From: a virus
Taxonomy: Duplodnaviria; Heunggongvirae; Uroviricota; Caudoviricetes
Length of the DNA: 54,063 bases
Virus record (IMG/VR): IMGVR_UViG_2861048470_000002
Strand: one strand, 5' to 3'
Each line of letters starts with the position of its first letter. Position 1 is the stretch's first letter. A model generated the notes under the pieces. It made no database searches. It was not told the DNA's origin and saw nothing but the letters and a program-made list of their open reading frames with translations. This document shows positions 13,096 to 18,355 of the stretch, piece by piece. A program made the position numbers and the translations under genes.

Positions 13096-13797
13096 ATGAA
13101 AAACATCGCCGCACAGATGGTTAACTTTGACCGTGAGCAGATGCGTCGGATCGCCAACAACATGCCGGAACAGTACGACGAAAAGCCACAGGTACAGCAG
13201 GTAGCGCAGATCATCAACGGTGTGTTCAGCCAGTTACTGGCAACTTTCCCGGCGAGTCTGGCTAACCGTGACCAGAACGAACTGAACGAAATCCGCCGCC
13301 AGTGGGTTCTGGCTTTCCGGGAAAACGGGATCACCACAATGGAACAGGTTAACGCAGGAATGCGCGTAGCCCGTCGGCAGAACCGACCATTCCTGCCATC
13401 ACCCGGGCAGTTTGTTGCATGGTGCCGGGAAGAAGCATCCGTTATCGCCGGACTGCCAAACGTCAGCGAGCTGGTTGATATGGTTTACGAGTATTGCCGG
13501 AAGCGAGGCCTGTATCCGGATGCGGAGTCTTATCCGTGGAAATCAAACGCGCACTACTGGCTGGTTACCAACCTGTATCAGAACATGCGGGCCAATGCGC
13601 TTACTGATGCGGAATTACGCCGTAAGGCCGCAGATGAGCTTGTCCATATGACTGCGAGAATTAACCGTGGTGAGGCGATCCCTGAACCAGTAAAACAACT
13701 TCCTGTCATGGGCGGTAGACCTCTAAATCGTGCACAGGCTCTGGCGAAGATCGCAGAAATTAAAGCTAAGTTCGGACTGAAAGGAGCAAGTGTATGA
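13096..13797 (+). CDS. P: Lambda P, DnaB helicase loader, 233 aa
   Basis: MKNIAAQMVNFDREQMRRIANNMPEQYDEKPQVQQVAQIINGVFSQLLATFPASLANRDQNELNEIRRQW is lambda P. Confidence 0.96.
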   Translation: MKNIAAQMVNFDREQMRRIANNMPEQYDEKPQVQQVAQIINGVFSQLLATFPASLANRDQNELNEIRRQWVLAFRENGITTMEQVNAGMRVARRQNRPFLPSPGQFVAWCREEASVIAGLPNVSELVDMVYEYCRKRGLYPDAESYPWKSNAHYWLVTNLYQNMRANALTDAELRRKAADELVHMTARINRGEAIPEPVKQLPVMGGRPLNRAQALAKIAEIKAKFGLKGASV

Positions 13798-13967
13798 TGG
13801 GCAAAGAGGCAATTATTCATTACCTGGGGACGCACAAGAGCTTCTGTGCGCCGGACGTTGCTGCGACAACAGGTGTGACATTAACCAGCATAAATCAGGC
13901 TGCGGCAAAAATGGCGCGGGCAGGAATCCTGGTCATTGATGGTAAGGTCTGGCGAACGTTTGTTTAA
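13794..13967 (+). pseudogene. ren: Truncated ren, 57 codons versus about 96 in lambda
   Basis: MMGKEAIIHYLGTHKSFCAPDVAATTGVTLTSINQAAAKMARAGILVIDGKVWRTFV then stop; homology to lambda Ren ends where the low-GC island begins. Confidence 0.75.
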
Positions 13968-14113
13968 CGGTTAGCTACTCAGGATGATAGGGCGGGGCAA
14001 GTGAGTATGAAGCGGATTTTCAGGAATGCCATCAGAGTTTGGAAATAAAGTGGGTTTTCTAGTGGCAAGAGACTTGATAATATTTAGTTCTTTGAATCCA
14101 AGGAGATAGGGTT

Positions 14114-14608
14114 ATGAGAAAATTTATTTTAGCCTTTGTTATAAGTGCCTCGTTTACAGCAAATGCTGGTGTAGAGAAGTTAGGGCCGTGGATAACAAAG
14201 TCTGAGATAAATAAAATGACTGACCAGACTGACTTTGTGGCCCTTAATTTATCACCAGATTCATATAACAAAGCAGGTACTGATCGTGCAACTTCACTGG
14301 TGTTGCGTTGTAGTGATAACAAAACAGATGCCTATTTATCATTCAATGATTATATGGGTTCGGACAACCCAAGAATTACAGTGCGGTTAGATGGCGGAAA
14401 GCCGGTCAAGAGTGTTTGGGGAGGTGGGGAAGGCGGTGATTCTGCATTTGCTCCACAACCAATACAATTTATAAAGACCTTGGCTAAGCATAAAAAAGCT
14501 ATTTTTGGGTTTGAACCTTATGGATCAACTATGCAAGTAGTTGAGTTTGACTTGTCTGAGATTGATAAGGTTGTGGAAAAAATTTCACAGTCTTGCAATT
14601 GGAAATGA
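14114..14608 (+). CDS. Hypothetical secreted/periplasmic protein with a cleavable signal peptide, 164 aa
   Basis: MRKFILAFVISASFTANA signal then a mature domain with two Cys; AGGAGA-like RBS (GGAGATAGGG) upstream; no family recognised. Confidence 0.7.
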   Translation: MRKFILAFVISASFTANAGVEKLGPWITKSEINKMTDQTDFVALNLSPDSYNKAGTDRATSLVLRCSDNKTDAYLSFNDYMGSDNPRITVRLDGGKPVKSVWGGGEGGDSAFAPQPIQFIKTLAKHKKAIFGFEPYGSTMQVVEFDLSEIDKVVEKISQSCNWK

Positions 14609-14625
14609 CAAAAAAATTTCATATG

Positions 14626-14650
14626 AACCCAGTTTGCGCTGGGTTTTTTA
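14626..14650 (+). terminator. Rho-independent terminator (ACCCAG TTTGCG CTGGGT then TTTTTT) after the 164-aa gene
   Basis: Perfect stem plus T-run 18 nt after the stop codon. Confidence 0.8.
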
Positions 14651-15237
14651 TTTCAGTAGCCAATAATGCATTCAAAATCTCTTACTTGAGAAACGGCCTA
14701 TTTGAGATTTCAGTCGTGGCAGGATGATCAGTTGATTCGAGTATTGACGCATTTGCGTTCGGAGCGATTACAGTAGATTGTAAATAATAATGAGAAACAC
14801 ATAGCCACCCCGTGGTATTGAAACCATATAATGTTGGATTTGAAAACAGATCTTTTCCCATGTATTAATAACTACATCCCCGCGAGTGATTCAAAAAGGA
14901 GGGCCCAATTTTGTCCGAGTTTTTGTATTCCCCCGCATGCCGCTGCGGAGCACTACATCTGAGTGTCTGACTAGGGGATAAAATTAGACTGGATAGTGAG
15001 AAGAAAGTGGCGCGCTAGGCTGTGCCGAGTGCTACCAGTACACCTTGGGGGTGTGCAGCTTTCGCCGAGACTGTAGTGGGTATCGGTTAATGCACGAAAA
15101 ACCGAGAGGTCAGACAACCAATTTGCCGTAGGATTGTTTCCGGTGCGATACCGGTCTACTAACTGAAAGCAATGCGAAAAAGCATAAACTCGGTCCTTCA
15201 GTCGCCCTACACACTATTTACTAAGAAGGGCTGAAGC

Positions 15238-15437
15238 ATGGATACAATTATTACATGGATGGGAGATCGTCTGTTGGGGGGACACAAAAATCCGATCTGC
15301 GGCAGATGGCGATCACTGGATTAACTTCCGCGATTTGTTCAACAATTTTGTACACTGAAAAATTAAAACATGGTGAGCCTATTAACCCAAACGAAGAAGA
15401 AAAACTTTATAGGCTTTGGTATGAAGGAAACGCTTGA
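15238..15437 (+). pseudogene. Small ORF (about 66 codons if restored) frameshifted at a G6 homopolymer (15283-15288)
   Basis: ATG at 15238 preceded by GAAGGG; that frame stops after 28 codons; inserting one G in the G6 tract joins it to the 15255-15437 frame. Confidence 0.3.
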
Positions 15438-15926
15438 AAGAATAAAGCACAATTAAAACCTTTGATTTGCGATAATCAACTTGCCATAATTAAGTAATCG
15501 GAGTCTGAACAACTCCGGTGACTTCTGCGCTAAACGGGGACGTTTATGCGCACATACAATCCAAACTATCTTCTCCTTTCACAGATGCAGAAATGCACCT
15601 GCAATTCTTTGCATCTAGCGTTTGACCTCTGCGGAGGTGAAGCGTGAACCTCCCACAAGACGGCATCAAATTACATCGCGGCAACTTCACCGCTATCGGC
15701 CAGCAGATCCAGCCTTATCTGGAGGAAGGCAAATGCTTTCGCATGGTGCTTAAACCGTGGTGCGAGAGACGCAGTCTTTCCCAGAATGCACTCAGCCACA
15801 TGTGGTACAGCGAAATCAGTGAATACCTCATCAGCAGGGGTAAAACGTTCGCCACTCCAGCTTGGGTAAAAGATGCTCTCAAACACACATATCTCGGTAA
15901 GCGTCAACGGAGCACCGTATTGACGC

Positions 15927-17540
15927 TTATTTATTGGTGAGTACTACGTTCCATGGCAGGAGTTCGTCAACACGGTTGGAGGGCCATTCCGGCAGTACGC
16001 TCAGAATATGGCGCAGATACGCTTCCGGATCGATACCGTTCAGTCGGCAGGTGCCGATCAGCCCGTACAGCAGTGCTCCACGCTCGCCGCCGTGATCGCT
16101 ACCGAAGAACACGTAATTTTTCTTTCCGAGACAGACTGCACGAAGCGCTCTTTCCGCTGTGTTATTGTCCACCTCCGCCAGACCGTCATCACTGTAATAA
16201 CAGAGGGCGTCCCACTGATTCAGTACATAGCTGAACGCTTCGCCCAGTCTGGATTTTTTCGACAGCGTGCCATTCTTCTCCACCATCCATTCATGCAGCG
16301 ACGTCAGTAACGCTTTGCTTCGCTGCTGCCTGGCTGCAAGACGCTCTGACTCTGGTAATCCCCGTATTTCATTCTCGATGGCGTACAGTTCACTGATTCG
16401 CTTCAGGGCTTCTTCTGCCGTCGCACTTTTGCTGCTGATGTATACATCGTGGATTTTTCTCCGGGCATGAGCCCAGCACGCAACTTCTGTCAGCGCACTA
16501 CCTTCACGTTCTGCACTGAACAGCCTGTCATAACCTGTGAACGCATCCGCCTGCAGGATACCCCGGAAGGGGCGGAGGTGTTGCTCCGGGTGTTTCCCCT
16601 GCCGGTTCGATGAGTACGCGAACCAGACCGCCGGAGGAGATGACGAACCCGCATTGCGATCATCCCGGACATACGTCCAGATGCGCCCTGTTTTCGTCTT
16701 TTTCAGGCCCGGTGCCAGTACCTTTACCGGTGTGTCGTCAGTGTGAAGCTTGCGGGTATTCATCACATAACGGTACAGGGCATCATTCAGCGGCGTCATT
16801 AACTGGCAGCACGCGTCAACCCAGTTGGAGAGTAATGCACGGCTCAGTTCGACACCCTGTCGGGCAAAGATTTCACTCTGACGATACAGTGGCAGGTGTT
16901 CGCAGTATTTTCCCGTTAACACGCGGGCAAGTAATCCGGGGCCCGCGATACCACGCTCTATCGGGCGGGACGGCGCCGGTGCTTCAACGATGCAGTCACA
17001 TTTTGTACAGGCTTTTTTTACCCGTTCTGTGCGGATCACTTTCAGGGCGCTGCTCACCAGTTCCAGTTGTTCTGCGCTGACTTCCCCCAGATAATCCAGC
17101 TCACCGCCACACTCCGGGCAACAGCTTTCTTCAGGCTCCAGGCGGTATATTTCACGGGGGAGATGTGCCGGTAACGGACGACGATGGCGCGACTGTCGCA
17201 ACTGGCGGGGAACCAGTGGGTCATCCTCACGCCCACTGTAACGATCGCTTTCCTGCTCGCGTTGTTTCAGCAGGGCTTCAGCCTGTTCAACCTCACGACG
17301 CAGTTTTTCAGAACGGGTTCCGAACAGCATCCGGCGCAGTTTTTCTATCTGAGCCCGCAGATGCTCTATTTCTCGCTCATCTTCTTCGATCTTTTCTTCG
17401 GCACGTGCCAGTGCAGAGCGCAGGAAGGCCTCCGTCTCTTCAACCAGACTCAGTTGCTGGTCTTTCTGACGGAGGGCTTCAGCCTGCTCAGAGAGCAGCC
17501 TTTCCAGCTCAGCGATGCGAATGAGGTATTTCTGACTCAT
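15927..17540 (-). CDS. IS66-family transposase TnpC, 537 aa
   Basis: Coiled-coil N-terminus, CxxC...CxxC zinc motif, and conserved core typical of IS66 TnpC. Confidence 0.9.
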   Translation of the reverse strand: MSQKYLIRIAELERLLSEQAEALRQKDQQLSLVEETEAFLRSALARAEEKIEEDEREIEHLRAQIEKLRRMLFGTRSEKLRREVEQAEALLKQREQESDRYSGREDDPLVPRQLRQSRHRRPLPAHLPREIYRLEPEESCCPECGGELDYLGEVSAEQLELVSSALKVIRTERVKKACTKCDCIVEAPAPSRPIERGIAGPGLLARVLTGKYCEHLPLYRQSEIFARQGVELSRALLSNWVDACCQLMTPLNDALYRYVMNTRKLHTDDTPVKVLAPGLKKTKTGRIWTYVRDDRNAGSSSPPAVWFAYSSNRQGKHPEQHLRPFRGILQADAFTGYDRLFSAEREGSALTEVACWAHARRKIHDVYISSKSATAEEALKRISELYAIENEIRGLPESERLAARQQRSKALLTSLHEWMVEKNGTLSKKSRLGEAFSYVLNQWDALCYYSDDGLAEVDNNTAERALRAVCLGKKNYVFFGSDHGGERGALLYGLIGTCRLNGIDPEAYLRHILSVLPEWPSNRVDELLPWNVVLTNK

Positions 17541-17570
17541 GGCCGTTTTTATAATCCGGCCCGGCGTTTT

Positions 17571-17921
17571 TTACAACATTGTCAGTGCGTTAAGGCGGGA
17601 TGTTTTTGGCTGACGCCAGTCCAGCTTATCGAGGAGCATTGCCAGTTGCGAGCGGGTAATGGATATCTTACCGTCACGCACCGCAGGCCAGATAAACTGA
17701 CCTTCCTCAAGGCGTTTGGTGAACAGGCACAGACCATCAGCATCAGCCCACAGGATTTTAATCGTGTCTCCCCGTCGGCCACGGAAGATAAACAGGTGAC
17801 CGGAGAAGGGGTTATCATCCAGCACATGCTGTATCTGCTCCCCCAGACCGTTGAAGGATTTACGCATATCAGTAACGCCGGCAACGAGCCAGATACGGGT
17901 ACCTGATGGGAGTGAAATCAT
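17571..17921 (-). CDS. IS66-family Orf2 (TnpB), 116 aa
   Basis: MISLPSGTRIWLVAGVTDMRKSFNGL, the conserved IS66 Orf2 family. Confidence 0.9.
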   Translation of the reverse strand: MISLPSGTRIWLVAGVTDMRKSFNGLGEQIQHVLDDNPFSGHLFIFRGRRGDTIKILWADADGLCLFTKRLEEGQFIWPAVRDGKISITRSQLAMLLDKLDWRQPKTSRLNALTML

Positions 17922-18355
17922 CGTCCCCTCCCGGTCAGCTCACGGATCAACACCGTGAGCAGCTCTGGTGAAGGATTTTCCAGCATCATTTTACCGTAAT
18001 GGAATTCCACATGGCAGGAAGCTGCACAAGCAACTGATAATGCCTCCGGAGCAGGAGCATCTGTAGCACAGCGCGGGGGGTCGATAAGTTCCACTGGAAC
18101 CAGAGTCGGAGAGGCCGGAAAAGATTGTGATACTGTAGGGCCTACAATAGTTGGAGGCATTCTACGAGAAATACGTCCTTCTCTTTGCCAGAGGCGTAGC
18201 CATTTAAAAATCAGGTTGTTATCAACGCCATGTTCCCGGGCCAGTTGTGCAACATTGGCATTTGGTTTCGAAGCCAGTTCAACCATATGAAGTTTAAATT
18301 CATTAGAAAATATCCGGCGGGTTCCGGAGCGCCAGTCTGTAGGTTTATCCATCAA
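17918..18355 (-). CDS. IS66-family Orf1 (TnpA), 145 aa
   Basis: HTH-like N-terminal region; first gene of the IS66 three-gene set. Confidence 0.85.
   Translation of the reverse strand: MMDKPTDWRSGTRRIFSNEFKLHMVELASKPNANVAQLAREHGVDNNLIFKWLRLWQREGRISRRMPPTIVGPTVSQSFPASPTLVPVELIDPPRCATDAPAPEALSVACAASCHVEFHYGKMMLENPSPELLTVLIRELTGRGR

Follow-up and report, generated by a model that had tools for sequence, protein, structure and literature searches.

A small open reading frame split at a guanine run in a DLP12-like prophage of Escherichia coli: probable stepwise gene decay behind a candidate structured RNA

Background

Does a small open reading frame (ORF) that breaks off at a run of guanines represent a gene switched by slippage, or a gene in decay? 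The question is raised by the virus record IMGVR_UViG_2861048470_000002 of IMG/VR, whose 54,063 nucleotides are hereafter called the window. A reading made from the sequence alone had noticed two frames that meet at such a run, and had proposed either a fresh pseudogene or a phase-variable small gene. Our comparison with relatives leads us to conclude, with good though not full confidence, that the split ORF is a pseudogene resulting from the stepwise decay of an accessory gene of the nin region.

The window is an E. coli lambdoid prophage resembling DLP12. Around the locus, the replication genes O and P come first, then a ren pseudogene and a VasI/TagO-like moron; some 630 nt with no annotated gene separate the moron from the split ORF, behind which lie a 33-aa ylcH-like ORF and ybcN. 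The ren gene (approximately 13794 to 13967), beside the replication gene P, is annotated as 'frameshifted; internal stop' in every relative examined, which fits a decaying prophage region. The VasI/TagO-like gene (14114 to 14608, plus strand, 164 aa, with a PF11319 match just over the cut-off) is followed by a terminator-like hairpin at 14625 to 14646; it resembles a moron inserted between ren and the RNA described below, and in relatives it is variously cut by IS1 or IS3. On the other side of the split ORF, ybcN, which encodes a DNA base-flipping protein, starts at 15644 (region 15644 to 15940) and departs from all relatives at about 15899. It is intact (456 nt) in relatives such as L001, and is interrupted in the window by an IS66-family element on the minus strand (15927 to 18355):

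15927 to 17540, minus strand: IS66-family transposase
17571 to 17921 and 17918 to 18355, same element: accessory ORFs

The 861-nt stretch around the split ORF is found with 100% identity in 15 complete E. coli genomes.

Results and discussion

Two frames separated by one guanine

Most of what had been read from the sequence was borne out. An ATG at 15238 to 15240 does have a Shine-Dalgarno-like GAAGGG upstream (the ATG is preceded by AAGAAGGG), and both the sequence and the ORF list give its frame 28 codons, with a stop at 15322 to 15324. It is also correct that one G added to the run joins this frame with the 60-aa ORF at 15255 to 15437, which occupies the next frame relative to the ATG at 15238, into an ORF of 66 codons (MDTIITWMGDRLLGGTQKSDL...YEGNA). 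The position of the GGGGGG run, given as 15283 to 15288, was wrong; the run lies seven bases upstream, at 15276 to 15281. The features of the locus are as follows:

15225 to 15230, plus strand: Shine-Dalgarno-like GAAGGG, 7 nt 5' of the ATG, read from the sequence
15238 to 15324, plus strand: 5' part of the frameshifted ORF, with 28 codons, native in the first 15 only (MDTIITWMGDRLLGG)
15276 to 15281, plus strand: G6 homopolymer and frameshift site, where intact relatives have G7 and others G8 or GAGGGGG
15282 to 15437, plus strand: out-of-frame remainder of the 66-codon ORF (TQKSDLRQMAITGL...LWYEGNA*), the portion common to the 60-aa ORF at 15255 to 15437 and the intact ORF

The run is situated 13 codons past the start, at codons 14 and 15, where G7 is in frame, and G6 and G8 are out of frame. 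The 5' fragment is the same in other relatives with G6 (L001 and L009 to L014), and the GAAGGG motif is poorly conserved in the alignment with more distant orthologs. The window holds 11 G/C runs of length 6 and none of 7 or more, so that the G6 run is unremarkable by itself and takes its meaning from the relatives. Near-identical relatives carry G7 at this place, with the 66-codon ORF intact and annotated, which indicates that the junction of the two frames at the run is not a chance coincidence. The ORF region of VE-F5 differs from that of the window in having G7 instead of G6 and in nothing else, and that of GB089 in this and one SNP. The 201-nt CDS that results from G7 is annotated by PGAP as a hypothetical protein (WP_000379697.1, WP_000379696.1).

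A search of the restored 66-aa product against protein families, which had been proposed as a check, gave a full-length match to phrog_8527 (E = 2.1e-49, residues 1 to 66 on profile positions 1 to 66), and a further match to positions 1 to 65 of the 118-position phrog_12412 (E = 6e-26). In the unrepaired window, the phrog_8527 match is divided over two frames at 15276 to 15281; with respect to both PHROG families (66 and 118 aa), the window copy is frameshifted and neither frame alone encodes the family. Pfam gave no match for the restored ORF, for the 118-aa ortholog described below or for ten remote relatives, and PADLOC gave none for the 118-aa protein. Remote relatives retrieved by profile search numbered 351. 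Two anchor scans of genome contigs were also made; the first returned no match, and the second, based on a 16-mer, returned chance matches only, in high-GC genomes.

A truncated derivative of a conserved 118-aa gene

Phages IdasGreatGrand and Turner and a second, 'long' lineage of E. coli prophages encode a protein of 118 aa, to which the short form aligns over the first 63 residues. The 118-aa form is present in 99 E. coli genomes, in the 2 phages and in 25 of 25 long-lineage IMG/VR loci, all intact. Orthologs of exactly 118 aa are found in Enterobacter bugandensis, Obesumbacterium proteus and metagenomes, with identity down to 51%; they are placed in the nin region, flanked by the replication genes and by ninE/rusA/Q, with the exception of the 51%-identity members, which lie near an integrase. 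On sequence comparison, phrog_8527 appears to be a truncated derivative of this 118-aa family.

The family is best conserved at residues 62 to 118, and Trp15 is invariant; the window lineage is without both. The window copy thus falls outside the 118-aa family, as it lacks Trp15 and the motif WY.ASS.V..YD..LAKRCLDKSEYWLNS...ELNISL.GMKA.LE.IKHN of the C-terminal half. The 118-aa protein is predicted to be an up-down four-helix bundle (pLDDT 78), for which fold searches gave generic bundle matches only, and the 66-aa form would retain helix 1 and part of helix 2.

The origin of the truncation can be located. DNA alignment against phage IdasGreatGrand (L004) shows that the short lineage is without the 134 nt between two copies of TTGGTATGAAG. 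This deletion takes codons 64 to 113, approximately, of the 118-aa gene, and because it is out of frame the short form ends with ...LWYEGNA*, while the ancestral C-terminus is GMKATLEGIKHN. Its traces remain in the window:

15416 to 15426, plus strand: TTGGTATGAAG, lone surviving copy of an 11-nt direct repeat, at the deletion junction, where two BLAST segments overlap
15421 to 15456, plus strand: orphaned last 11 ancestral codons (MKETLERIKHN*), stranded in another frame by the deletion

The guanine run has an origin of its own. At the tract site, the ancestral sequence is TTG GGG TGG ATA ACA (L-G-W-I-T) and that of the short lineage TTG GGG GGG ACA, from which it follows that the G7 run arose from a Trp-to-Gly change and the loss of one codon. 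None of the 118-aa orthologs has a G run at this position; they carry GGGTGGATA or other codons. The G6 allele of the window is the third recognizable lesion, in a gene already deprived of its conserved half.

Tract alleles among complete genomes

A census of 5426 complete E. coli genomes found the region in 159; the carriers include 57 records of the near-identical 'short' lineage and 99 of the 'long' lineage, at 90 to 95% identity. Within the short lineage, the following classes were obtained and checked by sequence at 20 loci:

G6: 18 records, no CDS annotated
G8: 5 records, no CDS annotated
262-nt in-frame form (G7 or GAGGGGG): 34 records, CDS annotated

The in-frame class consists of about 16 to 17 GAGGGGG records (Gly14Arg, WP_021548985.1), 5 to 6 G7 records and 13 G7 records with R22Q; these counts carry an uncertainty of one, which probably stems from a partial match that entered both searches. 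IMG/VR holds 5 G6, 11 G7 and 7 GAGGGGG copies, in addition to 25 long-form copies, and in the metagenome contig L218 codon 3 is followed by a deletion of 8 nt, one more lesion of the ORF.

Long-read assemblies, and some older ones, often misjudge the length of homopolymers, and G6 could in principle be a miscalled G7. Such an artefact is extremely improbable here: the same G6 is found in 18 independently sequenced complete genomes, in 5 IMG/VR contigs and in the window, always on the same core flank haplotype, and the five G8 genomes, which come from different laboratories, have private SNPs in common.

Human isolates from several countries carry G6, as do isolates from a dog, a mouse, a calf pen, soil and a swan, and the prophages of these carriers have two different late-region modules, either QuuD with a porin or another Q with a lipocalin. 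This distribution across hosts, countries and late modules points to an old allele that spreads with the prophage. The idea of a fresh pseudogene is therefore upheld in one respect only: the intact G7 relatives and the full-length phrog_8527 match support a decayed gene, and the recurrence of G6 in 18 complete genomes and 5 IMG/VR contigs argues against its being fresh.

Tract alleles follow flanking haplotypes

A phase-variable gene would behave differently from a decaying one. Under phase variation, slipped-strand mispairing at the poly-G run would reversibly switch the 66-aa peptide on (G7) and off (G6 or G8) at high frequency. In its favor, the tract lies inside the ORF, and its length is 6, 7 or 8 among sequences otherwise 99 to 100% identical; three tract lengths among strains are indeed the first expectation of a contingency locus, and count against decay. 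We sorted 38 short-lineage sequences by the 1.2 kb around the tract, whose length was read from consensus assemblies, and obtained 24 haplotypes. None of the 24 carries two tract alleles, as expected for an inherited mutation and not for rapid switching. The comparison of tract lengths that the sequence-only reading had called for thus did reveal G6, G7 and G8 in different strains, but no switching within a haplotype.

One core haplotype is common to the G6 copies. Private to the G8 copies are the SNPs 15763T, 15768A and 15837A, which they have together with markers also present in two G7 copies. Isolates from the same source agree with each other: CH423, CH425 and CH458 are all G6, ET490, ET670 and ET979 are all in frame, and both members of the TKEC wastewater pair are G8. 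The exception to a single origin of G6 is the G6 contig L075, which combines an upstream haplotype otherwise found with G7 or G8 and a downstream haplotype of the G6 type; it could be a recombinant or a second independent G7-to-G6 event, and in the latter case would be a point for phase variation.

Other properties of the tract also speak against a switch. The run is short (6 to 8 G, the longest seen being 8) and not conserved, since GGGTGGATA stands in its place in the ancestral gene and GAGGGGG interrupts it in about 17 genomes; moreover, the gene to be switched has lost its conserved half, and its polymorphism is nonsynonymous only. The locus resembles the poly-G/C contingency loci of Neisseria, Haemophilus and Campylobacter in having a poly-G run early in an ORF, with length differences between strains that toggle the frame, but it differs from them in that the run is short, not conserved, linked to haplotype and situated in a degraded gene. 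To our knowledge, poly-G/C contingency loci are not an established mechanism in E. coli, and we know of no use of short poly-G runs for phase variation in mismatch-repair-proficient strains of this species. With every tract allele tied to its own flank haplotype, the phase-variable gene of the sequence-only reading finds no support, and we hold it to be very unlikely; the tract pattern is that expected of a mildly slippage-prone run without selection.

Relaxed constraint and the coding capacity of the G6 allele

Pairwise dN/dS among the 118-aa orthologs is 0.06 to 0.2, with synonymous sites near saturation, and the ancestral gene is consequently a genuine coding gene. Between the short and long lineages, codons 1 to 63 show 5 synonymous and 7 nonsynonymous changes (omega 0.36), a value not significantly different from that of the family. 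Within the 66 codons of the short lineage, all five SNPs are nonsynonymous (G14R, R22Q, S31F, T40P, L60F), an outcome with a probability of 0.005 under omega 0.15 and 0.30 under neutrality. Disrupted copies make up 23 of 57 (40%) in the short lineage, compared with 2 of 37 sampled long copies without an annotated CDS (Fisher p = 1e-4). Taken from sequence data, these figures suggest that constraint on the 66-codon stump is relaxed. Against decay, 60% of stump copies are in frame, and the 66-aa peptide may have some residual function.

The G6 allele might itself still yield a working product, either from the internal ATG at 15255 (60 aa, 51 of them native residues) or by a return to the 66-aa frame on G GGG GGA, through a -1 shift of the ribosome or slippage of the transcript. 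The ATG at 15255 is in frame with the native downstream part and was called by gene callers in public data (P0008, P0010), and TTG GGG GGA formally fits the slippery pattern X XXY YYZ. However, no purine-rich ribosome-binding site is found 5' of 15255 (GATACAATTATTAC), PGAP annotates a CDS in no G6 genome, and no strong downstream stimulatory structure was seen. The split layout is not a conserved design either, as most homologs are one uninterrupted ORF: the arrangement differs from a programmed ribosomal frameshift in that homologs have one ORF, of 118 or 66 codons, which is split in G6 and G8 copies only. As far as we know, heptamers made of G only slip poorly in E. coli, and known cases of transcript slippage require longer A/T runs. 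A functional G6 product is accordingly hard to credit.

Stepwise decay would instead have proceeded as follows. The starting point would be the gene for the 118-aa protein, a predicted four-helix bundle that is kept in lambdoid prophages of E. coli, Enterobacter and Obesumbacterium. A single lineage of E. coli then underwent the 134-nt deletion between TTGGTATGAAG repeats, which cut off the most conserved, C-terminal half and shifted the frame, leaving a 66-codon stump. In the stump, the change of the invariant Trp15 from TGG to GGG and the loss of a neighboring codon would have created the G7 run. Replication slippage at G7 would then have produced G6, with its 28-codon product, in the window and, separately, G8, with a 40-codon product, while in another sub-lineage a G-to-A change would have interrupted the run; the tract alleles would since have been inherited with the prophage, with no back-and-forth switching. 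The deletion, the creation of the run and the tract alleles can be followed by comparing sequences; slippage is the presumed mechanism of the last step, and loss of function its probable outcome.

This course of events has counterparts in the homopolymer-frameshift pseudogenes of cryptic lambdoid prophages of the DLP12 type, where a one-base indel in a short mononucleotide run likewise truncates an accessory gene, the prophage also contains an IS insertion and other pseudogenes, and the allele is stably inherited with the prophage. No essential difference separates them from the present case, in which three successive lesions (deletion, run creation, slippage) can be put in order.

A conserved structured RNA upstream of the decaying ORF

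The stretch without annotated genes that precedes the split ORF contains two features:

14840 to 14869, plus strand: sigma-70-like promoter, with TTGAAA (14840 to 14845), an 18-nt spacer and TG-n-ATTAAT (14861 to 14869)
14876 to 15207, plus strand: candidate structured RNA of about 332 nt, directly 5' of the ORF, intact in the window

The TTG of the -35 and the AAT of the -10 are kept across lineages, as read by eye from the sequence and the alignment; the automatic promoter scan did not report a promoter at 14840 to 14869. This putative promoter likely drives the RNA and, in the window lineage, the ORF remnant. Further upstream, the 8-bp unit CACATAGC at approximately 14790 to 14797 is present in 0, 1 or 2 extra tandem copies among near-identical relatives (L002, L005 to L008, L017, L075 and others); it is the second polymorphism of the slippage type at the locus, and lies in the spacer 5' of the RNA.

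In all nin-region orthologs, about 345 nt 5' of the ORF are conserved along with it, and more strongly than the ORF itself:

E. coli short versus long lineage: RNA region 99.1% identity, ORF region about 93% identity
E. coli versus Enterobacter: RNA region 76 to 78% identity with long invariant blocks, ORF region dS > 1

The RNA is found in 158 of the 5426 E. coli genomes, always as a single copy, and is at least 99% identical in 154 of the 158 carriers. Only four GenBank phage records contain it, two from Escherichia and two from Klebsiella. At CAGTCGCC, the conserved block stops in several loci of IMG/VR and of metagenomes; a canonical intrinsic terminator on the plus strand comes immediately after it, and behind that an unrelated gene, which encodes a membrane protein of 178 aa or a 176-aa protein with RHNLLH, or is NinB-like. 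The terminator and the unrelated genes of these other lineages indicate that the RNA is a separate plus-strand transcription unit; in the window lineage, no terminator lies between the RNA and the ORF.

Covariation supports the structure. With 29 sequences, RNAalifold predicted 85 pairs, for which 98.9% of cells are paired, compared with 33 to 48% when the partners are slid; compensatory double changes affect 14 pairs (1 to 5 when slid), and the covariation score is 0.178 (at most 0.048 when slid), a value that 0 of 500 shuffles reached. Eight extra sequences, retrieved with a different anchor, are 76 to 80% identical to the window; the seven complete ones keep 82 to 84 of the 85 pairs and show 3 to 9 double compensations each, with up to four pair types at one position. 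Support is concentrated in the 3' domain (alignment columns 120 to 336), the 5' domain being nearly invariant. The folding energy of the single sequence is not significant (z = -0.57), so that the structure is supported by covariation only.

Rfam 15 gave no match at E <= 1 on 13500 to 16500 and none at E <= 10 on 14840 to 15260, and ARAGORN found no tRNA or tmRNA at the RNA region. In a literature search, the conserved sequence strings of the RNA were not found in any of the papers searched, and the topic of nin-region RNA gave nothing relevant. svsR was considered as an identity for the RNA and rejected, as it is a different prophage sRNA, of 77 nt, from the 3' end of cI.

Two short ORFs were noticed within the RNA. 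A possible ORF of 19 codons in the 5' domain (14898 to 14970, plus strand) has an invariant Shine-Dalgarno GGAGG at 14898 to 14902, a TTG at 14911 and a TGA at 14968 to 14970, and would encode MSEFLYSPACRCGALHLSV. It may be a putative leader peptide; since all three codon positions are nearly invariant, the constraint on it is not purely coding. A hydrophobic 32-aa ORF on the minus strand (MLFRIAFGWLAGISPGMLLWQIGCLTSRVFMG), seen in Enterobacter-type loci (L025, L026, L032), probably does not represent a conserved gene, for in every E. coli copy, that of the window among them, a stop follows the eighth codon.

In the metagenome contigs L209, L217, L219 and L221, the unrelated 176-aa protein that follows the RNA terminator contains RLRHNLLH, an Rx4H motif reminiscent of HEPN RNases. 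Neither Pfam nor PADLOC gave a match for this protein, and PADLOC gave none for the cargo genes. The Rx4H protein hints that the cargo behind the RNA may be toxin-like. By analogy only, the succession of promoter, non-coding RNA, intrinsic terminator and variable protein gene in relatives L035, L038, L073, L077 and L209 recalls type III toxin-antitoxin loci of the ToxIN kind. Unlike in these, the RNA is one structured unit of 330 nt and not a set of tandem repeats, Pfam and PADLOC relate none of the genes downstream of it to a known toxin, Rfam offers no matching family, and the window lineage has no terminator between RNA and ORF.

Conclusions

The split ORF is most probably an ordinary pseudogene and not a genetic switch. 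In itself it is of little weight, but it documents the stepwise erosion of an accessory prophage gene, through a repeat-mediated deletion, an accidental slippery run and slippage, and it cautions that not every homopolymer-split ORF is a phase switch.

The RNA in front of it is apparently undescribed, and is the more notable of the two. We lean, by a small measure of confidence, towards viewing the decaying ORF as a dispensable passenger 3' of a previously undescribed structured RNA gene of about 330 nt in enterobacterial lambdoid prophages: the RNA appears to be maintained by selection as the ORF that follows it decays. The RNA might be a trans-acting regulator, or an antitoxin-like partner of the variable genes downstream. 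It has no Rfam family, occurs in the nin region of lambdoid prophages in E. coli, Klebsiella phages, Enterobacter and Obesumbacterium, and precedes variable cargo; if functional, it would constitute a new class of phage RNA, directly testable in E. coli lysogens.
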